From an uncultured Acidobacteriota bacterium (lineage in GTDB: Bacteria; Acidobacteriota; Blastocatellia; RBC074), in contig CAWCKY010000001.1 of NCBI GenBank assembly GCA_963796275.1, positions 96,001 to 160,000 on the forward strand: a stretch of DNA of 64,000 bases, read 5' to 3'. Position 1 is the stretch's first letter, and every line of letters starts with the position of its first letter. This document shows positions 45,598 through 60,019 of this stretch, in pieces. The translations under genes were made by a program, and so were the position numbers. Below the pieces are notes generated by a model. It was not told the origin of the DNA and made no database searches. It worked only from the letters and a program-made list of their open reading frames with translations.

Positions 45598-46207
45598 CCG
45601 AGAACAAGTTGATAGCTAGAGGCTTTTCAATGAATTCAACGAAGATTGAAGAGATCGAGGACAAACATATCAACCATTTGCACTTGTCCGAACATATTGA
45701 GAGAAATTGACGGGGAGAAGATAACTTGTCAGGGACGGTTCGCATTGATTACTCGGAAGGATCCTAGGCTCCTGCCAATCCCACAATAACTCCAAAAAGA
45801 CACCACCCCACGATCCGCCATTCGATGGCCGGGCCGAGTTGTGTTTACCCGGGATCGACTCTACCACCATGATCCATTGCGCCAGCGGATCGACAGGGTT
45901 TTCGACTTCTCATTTCATCCATAATACCTAATGCTGGGCATGAAGCTTAAACAATGCTTTCTCAGAGGCTTGAGAGCTGGATAGAGGAGTAATGGAGCAT
46001 AATTTCGTTAAAAATAGAGAGCTAATAGAGGACATCTCAAGAATCTCGAAGATAGTATTCAGCCGTGAATAAGCCGAGGCAGCAGTCAAGTCTCGTCTTC
46101 GGTCTCATTCAATACACCAACGGATGAACAGAAGCTTATTCAATGGAAAAAGCTACTGGTTGCCGATGCAATTACAACTCTGGATTTGATTTTATAAGGA
46201 GAGTCTC

Positions 46208-47170
46208 ATGACAAAGGATATGAGGATCGATGCGATCGTGACATCGACTGGTAATGTAATTGATATGTTTGTGGAGGGCGCGCCTATTCTCAGATCGGAT
46301 CAGGACGAATCACTGGTCAGTGACTCGGTCGATTTGGGCTACGAAGATATGGAGGAAGTGATCGCCCCATATATCTCTTTCAACCATAACGAAGTTATCA
46401 TCAGTGACGAGGTTGATTTGGAAGCTGAGGAGTTGGAGGACGTGATCGCTCCCCTTATCAGTTTCAACCATAACGAAACTATCGTCTGCGACGAGGTTGA
46501 GTTGGACGCTGAGGAGCTGGAGGACGTGATCGCCCCGTATGTCTCTTTGAACCATAACGAAACTATGGTCTGCGACGAGATTGAATTGGACACTGAGGAG
46601 CTGGAGGACGTGATCGCTCCATTTATCACTCTCAACCATAACGAATCTATGGTCTGCGACGAGGTTGAGTTGGACGCCGAGGAGCTGGAGGACGTGATCG
46701 CTCCCGTTATCTCTTTCAACCATAACGAAACTATGGTCTGCGATGAGGTTGAATTGGACACTGAGGAGCTGGAGGATGTGATCGCCCCGTATATCTCTGT
46801 CAACCATAACGAGGTTATCGTCAGTGACGAGATTGAATTGGACGCTGAGGAACTGGAGGACGTGATCGCTCCGCATATCTCCGTCAACCACAACGAAGTT
46901 ATGGTCTCCGACGAGATTGAATTGGACGCAGAGGAGCTGGAGAACGTGATCGCTCCATTTATCACTTTCAACCATAATGAAACGATTGTCTGCGATGAGG
47001 TTGAATTGGACGCAGAGGAGCTGGAGGACGTAATCGCTCCCTATATCACTTACAACCATAACGAATCTATGGTCTGCGACGAGGTTGATTTGAACGCCGA
47101 GGAGCTTGAAGATCTGATCGCGCCCATGACCATGGATTACCAGGGGTCGCCAGTGATCACTTATAGCTAG
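46208..47170 (+). CDS. Multi-cassette acidic repeat protein, putative multi-core peptide precursor (9 x XXXX-NHNE cores)
   Basis: AAGGAG RBS at 46196-46201; 28-aa period; invariant NHNE and IAP with synonymous codon variation; first gene of an operon with a TPR protein and an M50-HlyD fusion. Confidence 0.85.
   Translation: MTKDMRIDAIVTSTGNVIDMFVEGAPILRSDQDESLVSDSVDLGYEDMEEVIAPYISFNHNEVIISDEVDLEAEELEDVIAPLISFNHNETIVCDEVELDAEELEDVIAPYVSLNHNETMVCDEIELDTEELEDVIAPFITLNHNESMVCDEVELDAEELEDVIAPVISFNHNETMVCDEVELDTEELEDVIAPYISVNHNEVIVSDEIELDAEELEDVIAPHISVNHNEVMVSDEIELDAEELENVIAPFITFNHNETIVCDEVELDAEELEDVIAPYITYNHNESMVCDEVDLNAEELEDLIAPMTMDYQGSPVITYS
46370..47125 (+). repeat. Nine tandem 84-bp coding repeats (plus a degenerate in-register unit at 46286-46369)
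   Basis: Exact 84-bp period with no indels. Confidence 0.95.
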
Positions 47171-47182
47171 CCCGGGCCTAAC

Positions 47183-48082
47183 ATGCAGAATTTCAGAAGG
47201 CATGTGGCGACAGATCCACCGAAGGCACAGGAATCTCTGCAAGTGCAGATTCGCGCTATTTGCGGCACGGCCGAAGCTTGGCGCATCGAGGGGCGTTACA
47301 GCGAGGCCGAGCCGCTCTACCGATGGGCGCTGGAGCTGGCGGAACAGAATTTTGGCCATGATCACCCGGAAGTCGCGATTATCAGCAACAATCTGGCCGT
47401 GCTCTGTAAATACACAGGTAAGTTCGATGAAGCTGAACGACTCTATCGGCGCGCATTCGCTTTGATGGAGCAAACGATGGGAACGGATGCCCGCCATATC
47501 GCCACGCTCTATCACAACCTCGGCGGATTGGAACACGCGCGTGGCCGATTCGCCGCCGGTGAACTTGCGGCACGCCGCTCTGTCGAGATTCGTGAACGCG
47601 CCCTCGGTCCTGATCATCTCTATGTAGCTGCCGATATCGCCGCACTGGCGGCCATTCTGGATGGGCAGGGGAAATATGCCGAATCAGAGCCGCTCTATCG
47701 AAGAGCATTGGCGATCTTTGAGCGAGAGTTAGGTCCTGAACATTACGAGATCGCCGTCAACCTCAACAATCTGGCCGCGCTTAAACAATCGCAGGGCTAC
47801 CAGCAGGAAGCTGAACGACTCTATCGCCGGGCTCTTCTGATAAAAGAAAAATTGCTGGGATCGAATCATCCGGACGTGGCGATGACGCTAAACAACCTGG
47901 CCGTCCTCTGCAAAACGCAATGCCGGTATGTCGAAGCGGAAGCCATGTACCGGCGCGCCCTGGCTATCTTCACGCAATCGTTAGGACCTGAGCATCCGAA
48001 GGTCGTGACCTGCCGCCGAAACTATGCGGGCCTGATGCTAAAGATGAGGCGGCAGAATTCTCAACTGAGTAGCGATCAATGA
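47183..48082 (+). CDS. Tetratricopeptide repeat protein (42-aa kinesin-light-chain-like repeats)
   Basis: About six NNLA...G.Y.EAE.LYRRAL...LG..HP repeats; 12 bp after the precursor stop. Confidence 0.92.
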   Translation: MQNFRRHVATDPPKAQESLQVQIRAICGTAEAWRIEGRYSEAEPLYRWALELAEQNFGHDHPEVAIISNNLAVLCKYTGKFDEAERLYRRAFALMEQTMGTDARHIATLYHNLGGLEHARGRFAAGELAARRSVEIRERALGPDHLYVAADIAALAAILDGQGKYAESEPLYRRALAIFERELGPEHYEIAVNLNNLAALKQSQGYQQEAERLYRRALLIKEKLLGSNHPDVAMTLNNLAVLCKTQCRYVEAEAMYRRALAIFTQSLGPEHPKVVTCRRNYAGLMLKMRRQNSQLSSDQ

Positions 48083-50688
48083 AGACCGATTACTGCGCCT
48101 ACCCGCCACTGATCGCCCCTGACGTGGAAATCTCGGAACAACACGAAGGCGACTGCACGGCTTTCATCGTCGGCTCCGCCTCGACAAGCCGTTATCTGTT
48201 GATACGTGACGCGGAATATCGAGTGCTGCAGATGCTCGGCGAAGGGCGCGCCCCCGCGGAAATCTGCCGGCAATTCAAACAGAGGTACGGCGGGACGCTT
48301 GCGCTCGCAACCCTCACGAAGTTTCTCTCCCGGCTCGATGATTACGGCATTCTCGCAGGCGATCGCGCAGCTGGACGTCAATCGCCGGGACAGCAGTTGA
48401 GCACGCAGTTTTACCTGCGCTTCAGCCTGTTCAACCCCGATCCGCTCTTCACGCGCGTGGTCGGTGTGTTGCGCTGGGTGTGGACGGCCCAGTTCTTTGC
48501 CGGCTCCCTCCTTCTGATGCTGATCGCGGCGGCATTGGCATTGATCAACCGAACCGAAGTCGCACAATACGGCAGTTACATTCTGCGTGAACATTATCTC
48601 GCGGTTATCTTAGCCGGATTACTGGTGGGTGTAACTCACGAATTCGCGCATGGGCTGACGTGCAAGGCTTTCGGCGGGCGGGCGACCGAAGTCGGCGGCT
48701 TGTTGATCTATTACTGCCTGCCGGCGCTCTACTGCAATGTTTCAGGTCTCCACCTGATCCCGCATCGCAGCCGGAGACTGTGGGTGATCGCCGCGGGGGT
48801 CTATTGGCAGCTTCTGGTCGGAACATTCGCGCTGCTGGCATGGTTGATGCTCGCACCATTTACGATCTTCTCGGACCTCGCCTTCATCTTCTTATGCGGC
48901 AGCGTGCTGAATGTCGCTTTCAACGGAAACCCGCTGATCAAGCTCGACGGATATTACTTCCTGAGTCAGTGGCTGCGAATGCCGAATCTCATGGATCGCG
49001 GACGCGCCTGGTGGCGCGATCTTTTGCGATCCATTTTTTTCGGTGCTCCGAGTGAGGATGAAAAACGTTACAGCCGGCGCGAGCAGGCGATTCTTGCGTC
49101 ATTCAGTTCGCTCTCGTTTACTTACACGCTGGGTCTGCGAGTGTTCATAGTGATCTTCGTCGGTTCATATCTGACTGACTGGTTTCACCTGCCGGGATTG
49201 TTGCTCACTGCCGTCCTGGCTCTCACCTATATGCGGCGGCCGTTCGAGGAGTTGATGACCGCGGCGGTCTCCGCTTTGCGGCCACTCGGTGCAAATTTCA
49301 ATCAGTTTTGGAAAGCAAAAATGTCAACTCAGAAGCAAACTTCAACGATCGATCCGGGACAGAACGAAAGCCCTGCGCGCCGGCTTCGGCGCAGGCTCAT
49401 ACCGCTGGCGATCGCCTCGTTACTTACCTTGATCTTCTGTCTCCCCTGGAACGCCTCGGTCGGTGCTAACGGCGTCCTCGTCGCCATTCCGGGACAGGAG
49501 ACGATTATTCGCGCCCCGGAGAGCGCGATACTATCCGAACTGCGCGTGCGCCCGGGCGACCTGACGGAGGAGGGCGCGGTCCTGGGCCGGATGAGCAACG
49601 TCGAACTCGATGAGCAGCTGGCGCACGTACAGATAGAGCTCGATCGGGCGATTACCGAATATGAGCGTTATATCGGGGAATTGCGGCTCCGCGAGGAATC
49701 GATTACTCGGGCCGAAGTGAACCTGCGGCAGCGCCAGAGAGATTACGAAGAGAGTGATTCCGAGAGGCGACAGATCGAAGAGAGGCGGCGCGCCGAGCCG
49801 GACCGGGCGAAGTATCTGGTTGCATATGGCGGTTCGTTCTCGTTACCTGCCGCCGATCATCAAATGGAAAACAGTGTCTCGACTTATCCGGCAGCCATCG
49901 CAGTCTTGCACTCGGATGCGGAGATGCGCCACGCGAGATTGGCAGAGGCCAGTCTCCAGCGCGACCGGACACGGATGCTTTATGCACAGGGCATCGCGCC
50001 GCGGAGCGAGCTGGATGGAGCTGAAACACGAGCTTCGACTCTGGCCATCGAACTCACAGCGGCGCGCCAGCGGCTCGATTCCGCTCTGGTCGAACACCGG
50101 CATCGCCATCTCGGTCTGACGACCGAATTGCTGCGGGCGCGCTCGGACGTTACGTCTGAGCGATTACAGACCGGGAATCTCCATAACCTGGTCCGAGCAG
50201 CGAGCGATCTCATCTCCACTCTCACCGCTCGCCGTGACCTGTTACGGGGCAGGCTGGCGCAGCTTTCACTCGTAACGCCGCGTGCCGGCGCTGTATTCGG
50301 TGAAGAGTTACCGCGTATGGTCGGACAATATTTCCCCAAAGGCTCGGAAATCTGCCGCGTGGCCGAAACGCGGCAACTGCTGGCGCGCATTCAGGTATCC
50401 GAGCGTGAGATCGGAGACATTCGCCCGGGCAATCCGGTCCGGCTCAAGGTGCGGGCGCACCCCGACCGCGTCTTTCGTGGCAGCGTCGCCAAGATCGGCA
50501 GCGAAAGCGAACTCGATCCGGGCGGGCAGGTAATCTATCGGGTGGAATTGATCATTGAAAATACGGACGATCTTTTGCGATCCGGAATGACCGCATTCGC
50601 TCGCGTCGATTTTGACCGCCGGATGATCGGGGGCATCCTGATCTACAAACTGAAGCAGGCACTGCGACCTGAATTATGGATGTTGTAA
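48079..50688 (+). CDS. PqqD/RRE-like + M50 site-2 zinc metalloprotease + HlyD membrane-fusion protein
   Basis: THEFAH (HExxH) and NGNPLIKLDGY motifs in the TM region; N-terminal winged-helix-like segment; IIRAP...LRVRPGD, coiled coil, VSEREIGDIRPG...LRSGMTAFARV; ATGA overlap with the TPR gene. Confidence 0.88.
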   Translation: MKTDYCAYPPLIAPDVEISEQHEGDCTAFIVGSASTSRYLLIRDAEYRVLQMLGEGRAPAEICRQFKQRYGGTLALATLTKFLSRLDDYGILAGDRAAGRQSPGQQLSTQFYLRFSLFNPDPLFTRVVGVLRWVWTAQFFAGSLLLMLIAAALALINRTEVAQYGSYILREHYLAVILAGLLVGVTHEFAHGLTCKAFGGRATEVGGLLIYYCLPALYCNVSGLHLIPHRSRRLWVIAAGVYWQLLVGTFALLAWLMLAPFTIFSDLAFIFLCGSVLNVAFNGNPLIKLDGYYFLSQWLRMPNLMDRGRAWWRDLLRSIFFGAPSEDEKRYSRREQAILASFSSLSFTYTLGLRVFIVIFVGSYLTDWFHLPGLLLTAVLALTYMRRPFEELMTAAVSALRPLGANFNQFWKAKMSTQKQTSTIDPGQNESPARRLRRRLIPLAIASLLTLIFCLPWNASVGANGVLVAIPGQETIIRAPESAILSELRVRPGDLTEEGAVLGRMSNVELDEQLAHVQIELDRAITEYERYIGELRLREESITRAEVNLRQRQRDYEESDSERRQIEERRRAEPDRAKYLVAYGGSFSLPAADHQMENSVSTYPAAIAVLHSDAEMRHARLAEASLQRDRTRMLYAQGIAPRSELDGAETRASTLAIELTAARQRLDSALVEHRHRHLGLTTELLRARSDVTSERLQTGNLHNLVRAASDLISTLTARRDLLRGRLAQLSLVTPRAGAVFGEELPRMVGQYFPKGSEICRVAETRQLLARIQVSEREIGDIRPGNPVRLKVRAHPDRVFRGSVAKIGSESELDPGGQVIYRVELIIENTDDLLRSGMTAFARVDFDRRMIGGILIYKLKQALRPELWML

Positions 50689-52079: not shown

Positions 52080-55000
52080 ATGACCCACTCAATTTTGGAG
52101 GCGAATCCGGGAGATTTGAGGAATTTGCAAATCAAGATAGAGAGTCGTTTCGGCGTTCTACCGAACTTCTTCCGGCTGGCTCCTAAAAGCCCGGAGGTCA
52201 CGGCGAACCTCTGGGAGTTTGCGCAGTTCGCTTACCTGGATAATCCACTTCCATCGCTATTCAAGGAACGGTTATTCGTCTATCTCTCTCGCTTTTGCAA
52301 AGCGCGCTATAGCGTCGCGCGGCACGTCGGCTTCCTAGTCGGGCTGGGGCATCCCTCAGGCGACAACCAGTGTCCGATCCAGACCATCGAAGAAATCATG
52401 CGACTTCTCCGGCGTCCGTTCCCACGGGCCGAGCGCCTGAAACCGCACGTTTCTGGTCTCGCCGCCCGTAAGGCACCTCTGGCTAAATTGCCGAAGCCTG
52501 ATTCCGCCCTTGAAGAGACTATCTTTGCGTGCGCCGCTCATGTCTTCTTGCAGACACCAGACGCGCCCCGATGCCTCGACGCGATCAATCGCGCCTTTGG
52601 CGAATCGCGGTTCGAATACCTGATGACGTTTCTCGCATTCGTCCATACCGCCCATTACTGGACCTCGGTTCATACGGAATTGGAAGTTGAAGAGGACATC
52701 CAGCGGCTTTTGGCGACCTACGAAGCACTAGCCGAATGTCTGCTGAACGACCCGGAGTCCGGGACTTGTGAAATCAGTCAGAAGCTGCTCGACGAGTTGG
52801 CGTCACTGCGGGAGACCAGGGAGCGCCACAATGAATTATTGCAAGCGCATCAGACAGTACGCGAGAGCGAGGTGCAGGGCCGACGAACCAATGCGGAACT
52901 CGCCGGGCGTGTGGCTGAACTTCAAGAGCTCACTGTTGAACTACAGAATGCGCGCCGAGCCGCGCTCAATCTGATGGAAGACGCGATCCAGGCGAAAGCT
53001 GCGTTGGCGGAGTCCGAGGAGCGTTATCGCTCGCTGGTCTCTGTCATCACTGACGTCTCCTGGACGACCGATGTGGCAGGCCGGTTCGCCACGCCGCAGC
53101 CCGCGTGGACGGCTTACACAGGTCAGATCTGGAATGAATTGCGGGACTTCGGCTGGGTCGACGCCCTGCATCCCGAAGACCGAGAGAACGTCGGGGTCAC
53201 ATGGCTGCACGCCGTCAAATCACGATCCCTTTACAAATCACATGGACGGCTCTGGCACGCGCCGAGCCAGCAGTACCGCTACTTCGAGGCGCGGGCGACG
53301 CCGTTGTTCGACCCCGACGGCGGCGTGCGAGAATGGGTCGGCTCCTGCACGGATATTCACGACCGCAAAATGGCCGAAACGGCGTTGAGTGAAAGCGAGG
53401 AACGGTATCGGCGCCTGCTGGACAAACTGCCGGTTGGGGCCTATACCTGCGATGCCGATGGATCGATAACATATTTCAATCAGCGTGCGGTCGAAGTGTG
53501 GGGGCGCACCCCGAAATTGAATGACCCCGTGGAACGTTTCTGCGGCTCATATAGGCTTTATTCGCCTGACGGAGCGCTGATTCCCCACGATCGATGTTGG
53601 ATGGCGGTCGCGATTAAGGAGAAAAAGGTATACGAGGGACATGAGATCGTGATCGAGCGTCCGGACGGCTCCCGGCTGACAGTCCTGGTCCATGTCAACC
53701 CGTTTTACAATGAGGCTGGGAAATTGCTCGGAGCGATTAACATATTGGTGGACATCACCGACCGCAAGCGAGCCGAAGCAGCGATGGCTCAAATGGCGGC
53801 CATCGTCGAATCGTCAGATGACGCCATCATTAGCAAGGATTTGAATGGAATCATTGCGAGCTGGAACAAAGGTGCGGAAAAGCTGTTTGGTTACACGGCG
53901 GCGGAAGTCATCGGCAAACCGGTGACAATTCTTATTCCTCAGGATCGGGTGGACGAAGAGCCGCGAATTCTCGAACGGCTCACGCGCGGCGAGCAGGTTG
54001 ATCAGTACGAAACCGTGCGACGGCGCAAAGATGATAGCGAGGTTGACATTTCGCTGACGATCTCACCCATTAGAGACAAGACAGGAAAAGTTATCGCCGC
54101 GTCGAAAATTGCGCGCGACATCACCGAACGCAAGCGCAGCGAGATCGAAAGAGAAGAACTGTTGCTCAAGGAATCGGCGGCCCGCGCCGAGGCGGAAGCC
54201 GCAAATCGCAGTAAAGATGAATTCCTGGCCGTCGTCTCGCATGAGTTACGCTCGCCCCTGGGCGCGATCCTCGGTTACAACAGTATGCTGCGCGAGAAAC
54301 CGTCCGACAAGACGCAACTGAATTCATACTGCGACATCATTGAGCGCAACGCCAAAACGCAACTGCAATTGATCGAAGACCTGCTCGATACTGCCCGCAT
54401 CGTCAGCGGCAAGCTGCGGCTGGAATTGCGCCCCCTGGACATCACCCCCCTGCTCGCCGACGCGCTCGATGTGGTGCGCCCGGCGATAGAGGTCAAAGGT
54501 GTCAAATTGCGGATTCGGGAGGGCGGAGTAGAGAATGAAAATGGCGCGACGCGGGAAGAACCCGCAATCTTGTTGGGTGATGCCGCCCGGTTACAGCAGA
54601 TCATCTGGAACCTGCTCTCGAATGCGATTAAGTTCACGCCCGCCGGCGGGTTTGTCGAATTGCGTGCCGAACGCGGCGAAGGACATATCCGCATCATCGT
54701 CAGCGACACCGGCAAAGGCATACAGCCGGAAGTCCTGCCTCATGTATTCGACCGCTTCCGACAGGCCGATTCATCAAGCTCGCGGCGGTACGACGGCCTT
54801 GGTCTGGGTCTCGCGCTGGTGAAGGACTTGGTCGAACTGCATGGCGGTAAGGTCGAGGCGGCGAGCGAAGGCGCAGGACGTGGCTCGAGGTTCACCGTCA
54901 CACTGCCGTTGGCGGCACCAAGCGAATTGGGCGCTGTGGAGCCTAAGGCCCTGGCATTGGCCGTTGGCGCAAATGGCGAGGCGCAGATCCGAGGCGGGAT

Positions 55001-55457
55001 CCCATTGCCTGATGGGGTAACGATCGCGGGCTTGCGCGTGCTGATGGTAGATGATCAGGAAGAGGCGCGCGTCATGGTCGCCGATTTTCTGAGCCGGTAC
55101 GGCGCCGTCGTGACGACTGCATCGTCCGGCGCTGAAGCATTGTCGGTTCTCTCGAATATGACGGATGACGCGCGACCGGACGTCCTTGTGTGCGACATCG
55201 CCATGCCAATGGAAGACGGCTACACGGCGCTGCGCCGGTTGCGGGCGCTCGAAGATGCTCGCGGCGTCGCGGCGTCACAGCATATTCCGGCGATTGCGCT
55301 GACTGCGTTGGCAGGGAAGGAAGAGCGGTTGCGCGTGCTGAGCGCGGGCTTCCAATGCCACATCGCCAAGCCGGTTGATCCGGTCGATTTGATAGTAAGA
55401 ATCGCGAACATCGCGGGCCTATGGCGGCGGAAAAGAAATATTAGCCGCGGCAGTTGA
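52080..55457 (+). CDS. Hybrid sensor histidine kinase: AhpD/CMD-like N-domain, 3 PAS, HisKA, HATPase, receiver
   Basis: SHELRSPL, NLLSNAIKFT, DTGKGI, GLGLGL, VCDIAMP. Confidence 0.93.
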   Translation: MTHSILEANPGDLRNLQIKIESRFGVLPNFFRLAPKSPEVTANLWEFAQFAYLDNPLPSLFKERLFVYLSRFCKARYSVARHVGFLVGLGHPSGDNQCPIQTIEEIMRLLRRPFPRAERLKPHVSGLAARKAPLAKLPKPDSALEETIFACAAHVFLQTPDAPRCLDAINRAFGESRFEYLMTFLAFVHTAHYWTSVHTELEVEEDIQRLLATYEALAECLLNDPESGTCEISQKLLDELASLRETRERHNELLQAHQTVRESEVQGRRTNAELAGRVAELQELTVELQNARRAALNLMEDAIQAKAALAESEERYRSLVSVITDVSWTTDVAGRFATPQPAWTAYTGQIWNELRDFGWVDALHPEDRENVGVTWLHAVKSRSLYKSHGRLWHAPSQQYRYFEARATPLFDPDGGVREWVGSCTDIHDRKMAETALSESEERYRRLLDKLPVGAYTCDADGSITYFNQRAVEVWGRTPKLNDPVERFCGSYRLYSPDGALIPHDRCWMAVAIKEKKVYEGHEIVIERPDGSRLTVLVHVNPFYNEAGKLLGAINILVDITDRKRAEAAMAQMAAIVESSDDAIISKDLNGIIASWNKGAEKLFGYTAAEVIGKPVTILIPQDRVDEEPRILERLTRGEQVDQYETVRRRKDDSEVDISLTISPIRDKTGKVIAASKIARDITERKRSEIEREELLLKESAARAEAEAANRSKDEFLAVVSHELRSPLGAILGYNSMLREKPSDKTQLNSYCDIIERNAKTQLQLIEDLLDTARIVSGKLRLELRPLDITPLLADALDVVRPAIEVKGVKLRIREGGVENENGATREEPAILLGDAARLQQIIWNLLSNAIKFTPAGGFVELRAERGEGHIRIIVSDTGKGIQPEVLPHVFDRFRQADSSSSRRYDGLGLGLALVKDLVELHGGKVEAASEGAGRGSRFTVTLPLAAPSELGAVEPKALALAVGANGEAQIRGGIPLPDGVTIAGLRVLMVDDQEEARVMVADFLSRYGAVVTTASSGAEALSVLSNMTDDARPDVLVCDIAMPMEDGYTALRRLRALEDARGVAASQHIPAIALTALAGKEERLRVLSAGFQCHIAKPVDPVDLIVRIANIAGLWRRKRNISRGS

Positions 55458-56335: not shown

Positions 56336-59300
56336 ATGTCCCGCAAGAAATCAACTCCAGTCACACCTCCCGCGGCAGCAACTAAACGCGCTAGTCAGGC
56401 AAAGGCGGATTCGCCTATTGAAGAAAAGAGCGATCAGGTGAACGCAGATCCCAGGAAATCAGCTCGCCGGCGCAAACCTGACTCCATCGTCGTGGAAAAG
56501 CGTGACGAGGAACGACAGGCTGACTACAAATCTTTCCCGGTAGTCGGGATTGGCGCTTCCGCCGGCGGCCTCGAAGCCTTCAGACAGTTACTCAAGCATC
56601 TTCCCGTCGATACTGGAATGGCTTTCGTGCTGGTGCAACACCTCGACCCGACACATGAAAGTATTCTGACAGAACTGCTTTCCCGATGTACCCGGATGGC
56701 TGTGAGCGAAGTCAGGGACGGCATGGGTGTCGAGCCCGATCATCTTTATATCATTCCGCCCAATACCAACATGGCAATTGCCGAGGGCGTGTTGCGCCTT
56801 CTGCCCCGCGAAGAAGCGCGTTTGCGACATCGTCCGATCGATTATTTCCTGCGCACGCTAGCCGAAGACCAAGGCCATCGAGCCATCGGAGTAATTTTAT
56901 CCGGGACGGCTTCCGATGGCACCCCAGGCTTGGAAGCGATCAAAGCCGAGGGCGGGATCACCTTCGCGCAGGATCCCAAATCGGCCGGGTACGACGGCAT
57001 GCCGCATAGCGCCATCGCAGCCGGTCACGTGGATTTCATTCTTACTCCCGAAGGCATTGCCACAGAGCTGGCGCGGATCAGCCGTCACCCTTATGTAGTT
57101 CCTACGGCCACCATTACATCCGTTGGAGAAGAAATTCCACCCACAGGCCAGAATGGCTTCCGAAAAATACTGACCTTGCTACGGAGGACTAAAGGAGTTG
57201 ACTTCACCGATTACAAAGCCAACACCCTGCACCGGCGCATCACGCGACGTATGGTGTTAAATAAGCTGGATAGCATGGAGGATTATGCCCGTTTCCTGCG
57301 CGAGAACGTGGCGGAAGTCGAAGCGCTCTATCACGACATCCTGATCAACGTGACCTCTTTTTTTCGCAACCCGGAAACCTTCGAAGTCTTGAAAGAAAGA
57401 ATCTTTCCGCACATCGTCAAGTATCAAGTTCCGAATGAGCCGGTCAGAATCTGGTCGCTGGGGTGCTCGACCGGCGAGGAAGCCTATTCCATCGCCATGT
57501 CATTCGTAGAATTTGCGGGAGATCAGACGGAGCACATTCCTATCCAGATTTTCGCCACCGACCTCAACGACAGAAGTATCGATAAAGCGCGCGCGGGTCT
57601 CTACTCGAAGGAGATCGCGGAGCATGTCTCGCCGGAGCGCTTGCGGCGTTTCTTCATGGAAGCGGAAGGCGGCTACCGGATCAGCAAGCCGATCCGTGAC
57701 ATGGTGGTATTCGCGTGGCAGAACGTTCTCGCCGACCCGCCTTTCTCGCACTTGGATTTAATCAGTTGCCGCAATCTGCTGATCTACCTTGAGCCGGTAT
57801 TGCAAAAGCGGGTGCTGCCGACACTTCACTACGCCCTCAAGCCGACTGGCATTCTCTGGCTCGGCTCCTCGGAGACAGTGGGTTCGGCCTCCGATTTGTT
57901 TACTCCAGAGGACAAGAAGCACCGTTTCTACGTCAAGAAATTAACATCGTCCCGCATGCGCTTTCGCCCCGCGCCAGGCGATATCAGGCCTGACAGGGCC
58001 GACTTTGGCCAGAAAAAGCTAAACCCTATGACCGAGCCTGCTCTGGGTGGGCGCGACGCGGAGAAGGAGGCAGACCGGATTCTACTGGCTCGCTACTCTC
58101 CTCCAAGCGTCCTCATCAACGCCGATATGGATATCCTACAATTTCGCGGTTCGACCGGACCCTATCTCGAGGCTCCGGCCGGCAAGCCGACACTCAACCT
58201 TCTGAAGATGACCCGCGAGGGGTTAATGCTGCCATTGCGTGCGGCAATCCAAAAGGCAAAGAAGGATGATACGATCGTCAAAAAGGAGGGCGTACGGATC
58301 AAGTATGGCGCCGAATTCCATCAGATCAATCTGGAAGTGATTCCGACCAAGGGCCTCCCGGCGAATGAACGCTGCTTTCTCGTGTTGTTCGAGCAGACCC
58401 CGACCCCGAATCTGGGACAAGAGGCTAAGCCACCCGAAGCGAAAGCCGGCCGGGCAAACCGCGAGACAGATCGTCAGTCGGCGCGCTTACAGGAGGAGCT
58501 GGCTGCCACACGCGAATATATACAATCGCTCGACGAGCAGCATGAGGCCGCCAATGAAGAGCTCCAATCCGCCAACGAGGAAATCCAGTCGAGCAACGAG
58601 GAATTGCAGAGCATCAATGAAGAACTGGAGACCGCCAAAGAAGAGCTTGAATCCAGTAACGAAGAGCTGGCGACAGTCAACGACGAGCTGCGCAACCGGA
58701 ATCTGGAATTGACTGCGCTCAATGACGACCTGAACAATCTGCTCGGCAGCGTCAACATACCCATTCTGATGCTGGGCAGTGACCTGCGCATTCGGCGCTT
58801 CACGCCGCAGGCGGAAAAAGTTCTGACCCTGATCTCGACCGATTTGGGGCGGTCCATTGGGGACATCAAGCTCAAGATCAATATCCCTGATTTGGATGCG
58901 TTGATTGTCGAGGCGATCTCGACCGTGAGCGCACAGGAGCGAGAGATTCAGGACACGCAGGGACATTGGTATGCGATGCGCGTGCGGCCCTACAAGACCC
59001 TGAACAATAAGATTGACGGCGCGGTTATCGTGCTGATAGACATCGACGCACTCAAACGAGACGAGGTGGAGATCAAAGAATCGCGCGATTACGCCGAAGC
59101 GATCATCGGCACTACGCCCATCCCGCTTGTGGTTATGAACGCCGACCTGCGCATTCGCACGGCCAATGACGCCTTCTATAACACTTTCAAAGTCTCTCCG
59201 AGAGAATCGGAAAGCCGCCTGATTTATGATTTAGGCAATGGCCAATGGAATATCCCCAGGCTGCGTGAACTGCTCAATGATATTCTTCCCGGAAATACTT

Positions 59301-60019
59301 TCTTCAACGACTTCGAAGTCACGCACGACTTTGAAGTAATCGGCCGCCGCACTATGCTGCTCAACGCTCGCGTGCTAAACGGTCCTAACGGGGAGCCCCT
59401 TAGGATTCTCCTGGGTATTCAAGATATCACCGAACTGTTACGCTCCCAATCGGCAGTGCGGCGCTCGGAGATTCGCTACCGGCGACTCTTCGAAGCAGCC
59501 CAGGACGGCGTGTTACTTATCGACCCGAAAACGCGAACAATTCTCGACGCCAATCCCTTCATGACCGAGTTGCTGGGTTACACGCTCGACGAGTTGCCGG
59601 GCAAGGAACTGTTTGAGATCGGACTCTTGAAAGATGAAACGGCTAGCCGCCTCGCATTCCGGGAATTGCAGGAAGGGGGCTTCCTTCGCTACGACGATTT
59701 GACGATGCAAACCAAAACGGGCCAGCGCCGCGATGTCGAGATGATCTGCAATCTTTACGATGAGGTCGGAGAAAAAATCATCCAGTGCAACATCCGCGAC
59801 ATCACCGAACGGAAGCGGGCCGAGGAAGCGTTGCGGGAGAACCACGCCCAACTTCAGTCGCATGCGGAGGAGTTGGCTCGTTTCAATAGCGCCGCGGTCG
59901 GGCGCGAGTTGCGCATGATTGAATTGAAGAAAGAGATCAACGAACTTTACCGACAACTAGGGCATGCCGCGCGATACCCACTCGAATTCGAGGAGGAGGA
60001 AAAGGACACCCATGGCTAG
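56336..60019 (+). CDS. CheB methylesterase-CheR methyltransferase-PAS fusion protein (no kinase domain)
   Basis: GIGASAGG, VQHLDP, LSGTASDG; INVTSFFR, GCSTGEEAYS, CRNLLIY; EELQS coiled coil; three PAS domains. Confidence 0.93.
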   Translation: MSRKKSTPVTPPAAATKRASQAKADSPIEEKSDQVNADPRKSARRRKPDSIVVEKRDEERQADYKSFPVVGIGASAGGLEAFRQLLKHLPVDTGMAFVLVQHLDPTHESILTELLSRCTRMAVSEVRDGMGVEPDHLYIIPPNTNMAIAEGVLRLLPREEARLRHRPIDYFLRTLAEDQGHRAIGVILSGTASDGTPGLEAIKAEGGITFAQDPKSAGYDGMPHSAIAAGHVDFILTPEGIATELARISRHPYVVPTATITSVGEEIPPTGQNGFRKILTLLRRTKGVDFTDYKANTLHRRITRRMVLNKLDSMEDYARFLRENVAEVEALYHDILINVTSFFRNPETFEVLKERIFPHIVKYQVPNEPVRIWSLGCSTGEEAYSIAMSFVEFAGDQTEHIPIQIFATDLNDRSIDKARAGLYSKEIAEHVSPERLRRFFMEAEGGYRISKPIRDMVVFAWQNVLADPPFSHLDLISCRNLLIYLEPVLQKRVLPTLHYALKPTGILWLGSSETVGSASDLFTPEDKKHRFYVKKLTSSRMRFRPAPGDIRPDRADFGQKKLNPMTEPALGGRDAEKEADRILLARYSPPSVLINADMDILQFRGSTGPYLEAPAGKPTLNLLKMTREGLMLPLRAAIQKAKKDDTIVKKEGVRIKYGAEFHQINLEVIPTKGLPANERCFLVLFEQTPTPNLGQEAKPPEAKAGRANRETDRQSARLQEELAATREYIQSLDEQHEAANEELQSANEEIQSSNEELQSINEELETAKEELESSNEELATVNDELRNRNLELTALNDDLNNLLGSVNIPILMLGSDLRIRRFTPQAEKVLTLISTDLGRSIGDIKLKINIPDLDALIVEAISTVSAQEREIQDTQGHWYAMRVRPYKTLNNKIDGAVIVLIDIDALKRDEVEIKESRDYAEAIIGTTPIPLVVMNADLRIRTANDAFYNTFKVSPRESESRLIYDLGNGQWNIPRLRELLNDILPGNTFFNDFEVTHDFEVIGRRTMLLNARVLNGPNGEPLRILLGIQDITELLRSQSAVRRSEIRYRRLFEAAQDGVLLIDPKTRTILDANPFMTELLGYTLDELPGKELFEIGLLKDETASRLAFRELQEGGFLRYDDLTMQTKTGQRRDVEMICNLYDEVGEKIIQCNIRDITERKRAEEALRENHAQLQSHAEELARFNSAAVGRELRMIELKKEINELYRQLGHAARYPLEFEEEEKDTHG

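Follow-up and report, generated by a model that had tools for sequence, protein, structure and literature searches.

What does a bacterium make from a gene that repeats one 28-residue unit nine times in frame and carries a different four-residue sequence in every copy? The question is raised by a 64,000-nucleotide stretch of DNA (hereafter the window, meaning the whole stretch that was analysed) from an uncultured Acidobacteriota bacterium of the class Blastocatellia (GenBank assembly GCA_963796275.1, contig CAWCKY010000001.1, positions 96,001 to 160,000, forward strand). We find, with a probability that we place at about 0.68, that the product of this gene is a multi-leader, multi-core precursor chain of ten leader-core cassettes, which would be cut after each IAP to yield a set of about ten short peptides. 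The system to which the gene belongs would be one of RRE- and site-2-protease-dependent leader peptides, with a precursor architecture that appears to be new. A first-pass annotation of the repeat had proposed an encoded peptide library, and this interpretation as a whole is borne out in part: the reading of different peptides set in cassettes between conserved processing signals is supported by 156 distinct slots in 181 units of the precursor family, by a daptide-type leader end at IAP and by an adjacent protease of the matching kind.

A chain of framed cassettes with variable slots

The precursor gene (46208..47170, + strand, 320 amino acids), which is supported by the list of open reading frames (ORFs) and by homologues, is preceded by a Shine-Dalgarno-like AAGGAG (46196..46201, +, read from the sequence) that lies 6 nt upstream of its ATG. 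Translation of 46208–47170 (+) gives an N-terminal region of residues 1–54 (46208..46369) closing with the first VIAP, nine in-frame 28-residue units encoded by nine 84-nt cassettes (46370..47125), and a tenth, terminal cassette of 14 residues (47126..47167) followed by the stop codon (47168–47170). Each full cassette consists of a slot (four residues), NHNE, a follower (four residues), an acidic spacer (12 residues) and (V/L)IAP, and the slots, 12 nt apiece on the + strand, begin at 46370 + 84n (n = 0–8), which is the register of the first-pass annotation. Tandem Repeats Finder reports the array at 46350–47121 with a period of 84 nt, 9.2 copies and 84% matches. The terminal cassette, MTMDYQGSPVITYS, stands between LIAP and the stop codon and lacks NHNE, and residues 25–54 of the precursor represent a decayed cassette in which DQDE replaces NHNE.

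The nine slots (YISF, LISF, YVSL, FITL, VISF, YISV, HISV, FITF and YITY) are all distinct, as had been described, and every slot is framed by invariant VIAP and NHNE in the nine full units; the span previously assigned to the array, 46370–47125, begins with the first slot and reaches to the tenth (L)IAP. The use of synonymous codons at invariant residues was likewise confirmed, with CAT eight times and CAC once for His, AAC eight times and AAT once for the second Asn, GAA eight times and GAG once for Glu, and CCA, CCC and CCG three times each for Pro. By hydropathy scan, the precursor has no hydrophobic, transmembrane or signal-like segment. Searches of Pfam and NCBIfam (release 20) assigned it to no family and returned spurious sub-threshold matches only (Ovate, RnlA, S17e and the like), a search of the ESM Atlas gave nothing usable, and a scan of the + strand for promoters and terminators yielded nothing exceeding shuffled sequences.

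Comparison of the nine units with one another sets the slot apart. The proportions of nonsynonymous (pN) and synonymous (pS) differences are 0.33 and 0.10 in the slot (ratio 3.2, on only four codons), 0.28 and 0.26 in the follower (ratio 1.1) and 0.04 and 0.41 in the remaining 20 codons (ratio 0.10). Counted as minimal codon changes, the slot shows 11 nonsynonymous and 1 synonymous, and the 20 codons that belong to neither slot nor follower show 6 and 16, respectively (Fisher p = 0.0008). Therefore, the cassette frame is under purifying selection, from which the slot is exempt. The stronger claim, that the slot is maintained by diversifying selection, is suggested by slot changes that are nearly all nonsynonymous, but an excess over the neutral ratio is not established, because neutral site counts lead one to expect about 3.4 : 1 and the observed 11 : 1 is not clearly above this (binomial estimate, p ~0.2). 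Since this comparison rests on four codons, and since the second slot position is limited to I/V in the window (L/I/V family-wide) and the third to S/T (S/T/A family-wide), we regard diversifying selection on the slot as suggested. The follower does read (T/S)xVC in six units and VxxS in three, but what had been taken for covariation is most simply explained by two lineages of duplicated units, because the VxxS units (1, 6 and 7) are mutually closest at the DNA level (identity 0.80–0.89).

Two long ORFs on the opposite strand (46310–47617, −, 435 amino acids; 46339–46971, −, 210 amino acids) together span the repeat and reach into the gene for the TPR protein that follows the precursor gene. 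The existence of ORFs of this length could be taken to mean that the + strand is non-coding or that the antisense ORFs are the true genes. This can be set aside with near certainty, because, when the units are compared in the + frame, most changes outside the slot and follower are synonymous (16 synonymous to 6 nonsynonymous), 188 database representatives match the + frame product, and the antisense ORF overlaps the TPR gene, itself with strong Pfam support. The antisense ORFs are by-products of the repeat composition and could mislead gene callers.

A first search returned six homologues of the precursor, and among 1.84 billion proteins there are 188 representatives at E ≤ 0.001 and 58 at E ≤ 1e-10, a few long ones being unrelated repeat proteins. 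The relatives are labelled as Blastocatellia or Blastocatellales metagenome-assembled genomes. Precursor matches are present in 12 of the 36 genomes of the same GTDB family (including the unpublished G004) and in none of 24 genomes from other families of the class; two genomes of the same genus (87% and 73% complete) gave no match to the precursor query. A family set of 52 distinct precursor ORFs with 181 units was collected from the fetched loci. These units keep (I/V)(I/V)AP and (N/Q)H(N/S)(E/Q), the latter as NHNE in 153 units, QHNE in 21, NHSE in four and NHNQ in three, with Thr directly after the motif in 133 of the 181. Column entropy is 0–0.14 bits at P-1, A-2, E-6, E-8, E-9 and L-12 of the leader and at H and E of the motif, and 2.5–3.6 bits in the slot. 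Slot length ranges from 3 to 12 residues (four in 136 of 181 units) and differs within 14 of the 44 multi-unit ORFs, and any slot is repeated in just seven of these 44. One to three units are found in 36 of the 52 ORFs, eight of which have a single unit. Tandem precursor genes are common at these loci (for example, four in L027/L063), and the leader copies in a single precursor (L037) number up to about 12.

Variation of the slot within a kept frame is also seen in a metagenomic fragment of a truncated ortholog (P0007; 75% identity over 102 residues), in which IAP, NHNE and the spacer are retained and both slots covered differ from those of the window precursor. Parts of the 64-kb stretch are contained in five soil-metagenome DNA runs from four studies (best share 0.21), and no RNA sequencing run containing the stretch is listed. 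Four of the five soil runs were examined at the array and hold short contigs only, none bridging it; one run has near-identical pieces at 46537–46687 and 46739–47084, and the others have relatives of 90–95%.

The mostly hydrophobic slots of the window precursor could also be read as the hydrophobic core of a folded, very acidic beta-solenoid or beta-repeat protein. The best of five single-sequence AlphaFold2 (AF2) models is indeed all-beta with the period of the repeat (pLDDT 69.9, pTM 0.74), and in it the slot plus the adjoining N forms a five-residue strand. The other four models, though, have pLDDT values of 36–38, the precursor segment reaches only 52–53 in the complex runs described below, and there is no PDB match at E 0.001, the best being beta-helix lyases (E 0.056, TM-score ≤ 0.36). 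A slot whose length varies within 14 of 44 ORFs, and a family in which 36 of 52 members have three units or fewer and eight have one, are also at odds with a solenoid. Moreover, AF2 is reported to yield confident but unrealistic beta-solenoids for repeats (PMC11795689). The solenoid reading is poorly supported, and we consider it improbable.

The protease fusion and the leader end

The neighbourhood of the precursor includes an 869-residue fusion of an RRE, a site-2 metalloprotease and an HlyD adaptor (48079..50688, +), the start of which overlaps the stop of the TPR gene by 4 nt. Its RRE-like domain (about residues 12–90; 48112..48348, +) is modelled by AF2 as three strands and then three helices. 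The site-2 protease motifs HEFAH (residues 187–191) and NPLIKLDG (residues 284–291), located at 48637..48951 (+), conform to HExxH and NPxxxLDG and are invariant or nearly so in an alignment of 27 homologues. Hydropathy analysis shows four hydrophobic segments in the protease domain and one transmembrane anchor (residues 440–458) before the HlyD-type periplasmic adaptor domain (anchor and adaptor, 49396..50685, +; Pfam HlyD_D23 and HlyD_3; NCBIfam RND_mfp and type_I_hlyD).

Residues 12–392 of the fusion match the NCBIfam model daptide_HExxH (NF041824) over positions 3–372 of 379 with E 4.6e-50, at a score of 170.8 bits (173.4 in the genome search) that is below the cut-off of 300 of a model without an HlyD part. 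By sequence, the fusion protease is a homologue of the daptide protease and not an equivalog, and its gene is the single one of the daptide_HExxH type in the 9.46-Mb genome. The AF2 model of residues 1–400, built from the 27-sequence alignment (pLDDT 82.6), combines an N-terminal RRE fold with a helical membrane domain of the site-2 protease fold. With Foldseek, the RRE part matches TbiB1 with its leader peptide (5v1u; TM-score 0.68 on the target, root-mean-square deviation 3.5 over 88 columns, probability 1.00, E 0.015) as well as 6jx3, ThcOx (5lq4) and PqqD (5sxy), and the protease part matches the M. jannaschii site-2 protease (3b4r; E 0.014, probability 1.00) and SpoIVFB (8vjl); the probabilities of the top matches are 0.9–1.0, with E-values of only 0.014–0.5. 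A PDB sequence search with the protease N-terminus gave no match at E ≤ 1.

Daptide leaders are reported to be removed by an RRE-fused intramembrane site-2 protease, and their motif is given as ELExMEAP, which requires L-7 and M-4 and has P in position −1 (bioRxiv 10.1101/2023.03.08.531785). From 100 distinct units, the leader consensus of the family studied here is E-8, (L/A/M/V)-7, E-6, any residue, (V/I)-4, (I/V)-3, A-2 and P-1. The window leader, E-L-E-D-V-I-A-P, fits the daptide motif in the same register, with a difference at position −3 (I for E). Because the last eight residues of the window unit, ELEDVIAP, stand in this register, the IAP frame is most likely the end of the leader and the site of cleavage.

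The resemblance to daptides (precursor MpaA/DapA, protease MpaP/DapP) thus comprises a leader motif in the same register ending in A-P, a homologous RRE plus site-2 protease, and several precursor genes per cluster. Daptide genes are described as encoding a single leader with a single core that ends in an invariant Thr, as being accompanied by the tailoring enzymes DapB/C/D(M), and as occurring in Actinomycetota and Bacillota (bioRxiv 10.1101/2023.03.08.531785). The system described here differs in a leader repeated up to about 12 times per chain, in an HlyD-fused protease, in an obligatory TPR protein and in its Acidobacteriota hosts. The C-terminal Thr is not found in the window ORF, which ends in ...ITYS, nor as an invariant residue in the family, the ORFs of which end in many different residues. 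DapB/C/D (oxidative decarboxylase, aminotransferase and RRE-containing DUF protein) are absent from the window ORFs at ~29.7–64 kb and from the genes common to 28 loci, the rest of the genome lying outside this search. We rejected identity with daptides because these two defining features were looked for and not found. The closest relatives by descent are the daptide leader and protease.

Site-2 proteases classically cut anti-sigma factors. The precursor might accordingly be imagined as a regulatory decoy or anti-sigma-like substrate, the cleavage of which controls nearby ECF sigma (extracytoplasmic function sigma factor), kinase or two-component signalling with no export of peptides. Such a role would suit the ECF sigma and kinase genes that are frequent neighbours of these loci, and the receiver protein and hybrid histidine kinase at the window locus. 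It would not suit a precursor that has no transmembrane segment, a protease equipped with an RRE that binds peptides and with an HlyD adaptor in the periplasm, or the presence of several small hypervariable precursor genes per locus, which typify peptide products. We hold a purely regulatory role to be quite unlikely, on a level with the solenoid.

The TPR protein, the NHNE motif and the proposed release of peptides

A profile search of 185,579 species genomes with the fusion-protein alignment found 302 relatives, of which 80 were kept. NHNE-type precursors lie upstream at 27 of these 80 protease-fusion loci, and 24 loci are blank, by short contigs or otherwise. The order precursor(s), all-TPR protein, RRE/site-2 protease/HlyD fusion is kept in 28 of 28 loci (the window and 27 relatives), and clustering of all neighbours found only these three genes to be common to all 28. 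In the window, they form an operon consisting of the Shine-Dalgarno site, the precursor gene, a 12-nt gap, the TPR gene, a 4-nt overlap and the gene for the protease fusion.

Beyond the NHNE-type loci, 14 distant loci (25–29% identity) have one to four small ORFs adjoining the protease gene, each with one ..EELE(Q/E/A)RIAP leader and with other cores (L093, L094, L097, L099–L102, L104, L105, L108, L110, L112, L113 and L115; for example, L105:4492–4704 and L094:3927–5181). They are labelled Eisenbacteria, Nitrospirae, Gemmatimonadales, Rokubacteria, Vicinamibacterales and others. The tails of these single-leader ORFs are of low complexity and rich in Gly, Asn, Pro, Ser and Lys, no NCBIfam model matched the four that were tested, and they look like a wider undescribed peptide family. 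Because distant phyla keep a single-copy IAP leader beside the same fusion, the leader travels with the protease across phyla, and the NHNE cassette and its multiplication are a Blastocatellia-type innovation. At a further 15 Blastocatellia-type fusion loci with at least 3 kb of upstream sequence, there is no recognisable precursor and no small leader-bearing ORF in the 1.6 kb upstream; these precursor-less loci carry paralogues of the fusion at 41–57% identity (L042, L043, L051, L065, L068, L070–L074, L076, L079, L083, L088 and L089). One metagenome-assembled genome has both kinds of fusion (L071 and L092).

The all-TPR protein (47183..48082, +, 299 amino acids, TPR_12/TPR_10 type by Pfam) begins 12 nt past the precursor stop. 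It has no transmembrane segment by hydropathy, and searches of Pfam and NCBIfam found no DNA-binding or enzymatic domain on it, only a few weak sub-cutoff helical-repeat matches beside TPR. Its gene stands between precursor and protease in all 27 of the relatives' NHNE-type loci, whereas the 29 comparison loci, namely the 14 with a single leader and the 15 precursor-less ones of Blastocatellia type (at least 3 kb upstream), all lack it; four loci cut by contig ends show the TPR gene at the edge. From this distribution, the TPR protein goes with the NHNE cassette and not with the leader.

A complex prediction for the TPR protein (22-sequence alignment) with precursor residues 95–146 gave a score of 0.50, the best of three controls giving 0.01, with at least 83% contact agreement between runs and a partner pLDDT of at least 52. 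Note that the mark applied to such predictions is reached by 58 of 80 solved complexes and by 2 of 110 mismatched pairs, that only seven of the 80 solved complexes, plus both mismatches, reached it with a score of 0.60 or lower, and that these counts are approximate here, since our own alignment was used. The prediction lends weak support to binding of the NHNE/follower region by the TPR protein.

From homology and co-occurrence, we propose that every leader copy docks on the RRE domain of the membrane protein encoded downstream and that the site-2 metalloprotease domain of this protein would cut after the Pro of each IAP. Because the cut would fall after this Pro, the variable slot should become the N-terminus of each released peptide. 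NHNE and the follower would act as a second, C-terminal signal that is specific to the Blastocatellia-type branch, and the cytoplasmic TPR protein most likely serves to hold or present the chain of cassettes. Asn-dependent self-cleavage at NHNE, N-glycosylation of an N-E-T sequon and metal coordination by NHNE were also considered and set aside. A cut or trim near NHNE by a further activity would separate the short peptides from the next leader; such a second cut is suggested because NHNE(T) is conserved and some terminal cassettes lack NHNE. The fused HlyD-type adaptor points to crossing of the envelope. Since the conserved gene set contains no tailoring enzyme, the products would either stay unmodified or owe their modification to genes elsewhere in the genome: neither Pfam scans of the window ORFs at ~29.7–64 kb nor the set of genes common to the 28 loci revealed an enzyme of the radical-SAM, YcaO, lanthipeptide, aminotransferase or any other tailoring kind. 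Antagonism and signalling may be named as candidate roles of the products.

Several points weigh against this proposal. The protease falls below the NCBIfam cut-off, and the presumed cleavage site is carried over from daptides. Cutting at IAP only would leave 24- to 28-mers, in which each core is joined to the next leader, and neighbour clustering found no second protease in the set common to the 28 loci. The HlyD part has no conserved ABC transporter or outer-membrane partner nearby in these loci, and next to 15 related protease fusions no precursor can be recognised. Structure prediction contributes two further points, namely that the support for the TPR-precursor complex is only weak and that one of the five AF2 models would fold the precursor as a beta repeat. 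Finally, slot positions 2 and 3 are semi-conserved and NHNE-T is as conserved as the leader, so the mature peptide may include NHNE.

This last point can be extended into an alternative in which processing is the same but NHNE(T) is kept in the mature peptide as a pharmacophore or receptor motif, the slot supplies specificity, and the products are extracellular signals sensed by adjacent Ser/Thr kinases, with feedback via ECF sigma. The near-invariance of NHNE, with T next in 133 of 181 units, agrees with retention of the motif. An NHNE-keeping last product would also be natural for the 39 of 52 ORFs that stop 4–39 residues past the last NHNE (35 of them within 11), but nine of the 52 close with an NHNE-less cassette. 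The sequence NHNET(L)V(S/R)D does occur without an IAP leader, in P0125 and in a 73-residue ORF at L030. Ser/Thr kinase genes are present within 6 kb in 17 of the 27 relatives' loci and ECF sigma genes in nine, and the four kinases checked have a single transmembrane segment between the kinase and a C-terminal TPR part. The window locus, however, has no such kinase or ECF sigma across 26–64 kb and is instead flanked downstream by a receiver protein and a hybrid histidine kinase; moreover, adjacency may be overstated, since kin do not count as independent cases and these genomes are rich in kinases. Signals are usually amplified as identical copies, yet a slot is repeated in only seven of 44 multi-unit ORFs. 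We regard retention of NHNE in a sensed signal as a minority possibility, doubtful but deserving of mention.

Release of slot-derived peptides from a multi-leader chain remains the preferred reading. An expanded version of it, which we offer tentatively and think unlikely to hold in every part, is a widespread, undescribed soil-bacterial system with an IAP-leader plus RRE/site-2 protease/HlyD machine, in which multiplication of the leader in Blastocatellia would have given rise to poly-leader precursors that free unmodified hypervariable tetra- to dodecapeptides. In this version, the TPR protein would read an NHNE-T-follower tag, and the peptides would be kin- or strain-specific signals or antagonists that are sensed via neighbouring Ser/Thr kinases (outward TPR) and ECF sigma.

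Known peptide systems and further features of the loci

The first-pass annotation had likened the array to cyanobactin cassettes and to the yeast alpha-factor precursor. These analogies hold for the cassette architecture but not for the machinery; no cyanobactin-type protease or other tailoring enzyme is present. Cyanobactin (PatE-like) precursors carry several different short cores, each between conserved N- and C-terminal recognition sequences, and in this multi-core framed design they resemble the window precursor, with no sequence relationship found. Scans of the window and of 80 neighbour ORFs from 11 relatives' loci gave no peptidase S8 match that would indicate a PatA/PatG-type subtilisin, and no heterocyclase or other cyanobactin gene was seen in the window scans or the relatives' loci. 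Kex2-processed fungal repeats (alpha-factor; the ustiloxin-type dikaritins, which have tetrapeptide cores) likewise have many short cores parted by conserved spacers that bear the cleavage signal, the last copy being at or near the stop codon. Unlike the precursor described here, their copies are mostly identical, and they are processed in the eukaryotic secretory pathway by unrelated proteases.

Export systems of bacteria offer partial parallels. Double-glycine leaders are acidic and amphipathic and are removed at export by a C39-peptidase ABC transporter, which has an HlyD-family partner in diderms, whereas here there is no conserved C39 or ABC gene and a site-2-type metalloprotease is fused to the adaptor itself. 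As for type I secretion (HlyB-HlyD-TolC), HlyD is present, but the ABC gene is not conserved in the 28 loci and the precursor has no Gly-rich nonapeptide repeats. In the RRNPP systems of Firmicutes, a TPR receptor gene lies beside a propeptide gene, and the site-2 protease Eep matures some of the signals. The window locus shares with them a cytoplasmic TPR protein next to a short-peptide precursor and the involvement of a site-2 protease; it differs in a precursor that lacks a Sec signal peptide, in a TPR protein for which no DNA-binding domain was found, in the many different cores of each gene and in its diderm host.

Searches of the literature and of NCBIfam release 20 turned up nothing that describes these precursors or the protease-adaptor fusion, the supplements of the daptide papers, which possibly list related clusters, lying outside that search. 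Few secreted molecules are known from Acidobacteriota, which rank among the most abundant bacteria in soil. A locus of this type would carry the leader and protease logic of daptides into diderm phyla, in a new precursor architecture with a leader before every core; its new parts would be an NHNE tag that is portable and a TPR protein as obligatory partner. If three genes suffice, and nearly any insert of 3–12 residues is tolerated between fixed signals, the system would be a natural scaffold for encoded peptide libraries, and it would provide an opening for the study of competition or communication in these uncultured bacteria.

NHNE-type sequences and terminal cassettes also occur in other settings. 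P0125 (431 amino acids) has a signal-peptide-like start and about a dozen copies of NHNET(L)V(S/R)D after Cys-x4-Cys-Gly-x, and the 73-residue ORF at L030:8997–9218 (−), which lies beside ordinary precursors, has a hydrophobic N-terminus and closes with the same sequence; neither has an IAP leader, and the NHNE tag may be portable. In L038, L040, L029, L034, P0003 and P0004, an alternative last cassette has T-P for A-P and then a Pro-rich core (..PSIPIPPP..), and such cassettes end in ..NH, in ..LR or in NHNET plus a tail.

The Ser/Thr kinases near the relatives' loci are 860–930 amino acids long, often accompanied by ECF sigma (PF07638), and are found at L027, L028, L030–L033 and 17 of 27 loci among L037–L116, frequently on both sides of the peptide locus and convergent with the protease gene. 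In the window, the hybrid histidine kinase is a PAS-rich protein of 1125 amino acids (52080–55457), and downstream of it lies a 1227-residue protein in which CheB methylesterase and CheR methyltransferase are fused with several PAS domains (56336–60019, +). A Kelch-repeat protein of about 600 amino acids is encoded after the TPR gene at L034:11163–12941 and at L036:3675–5537, in the latter case before the protease gene.

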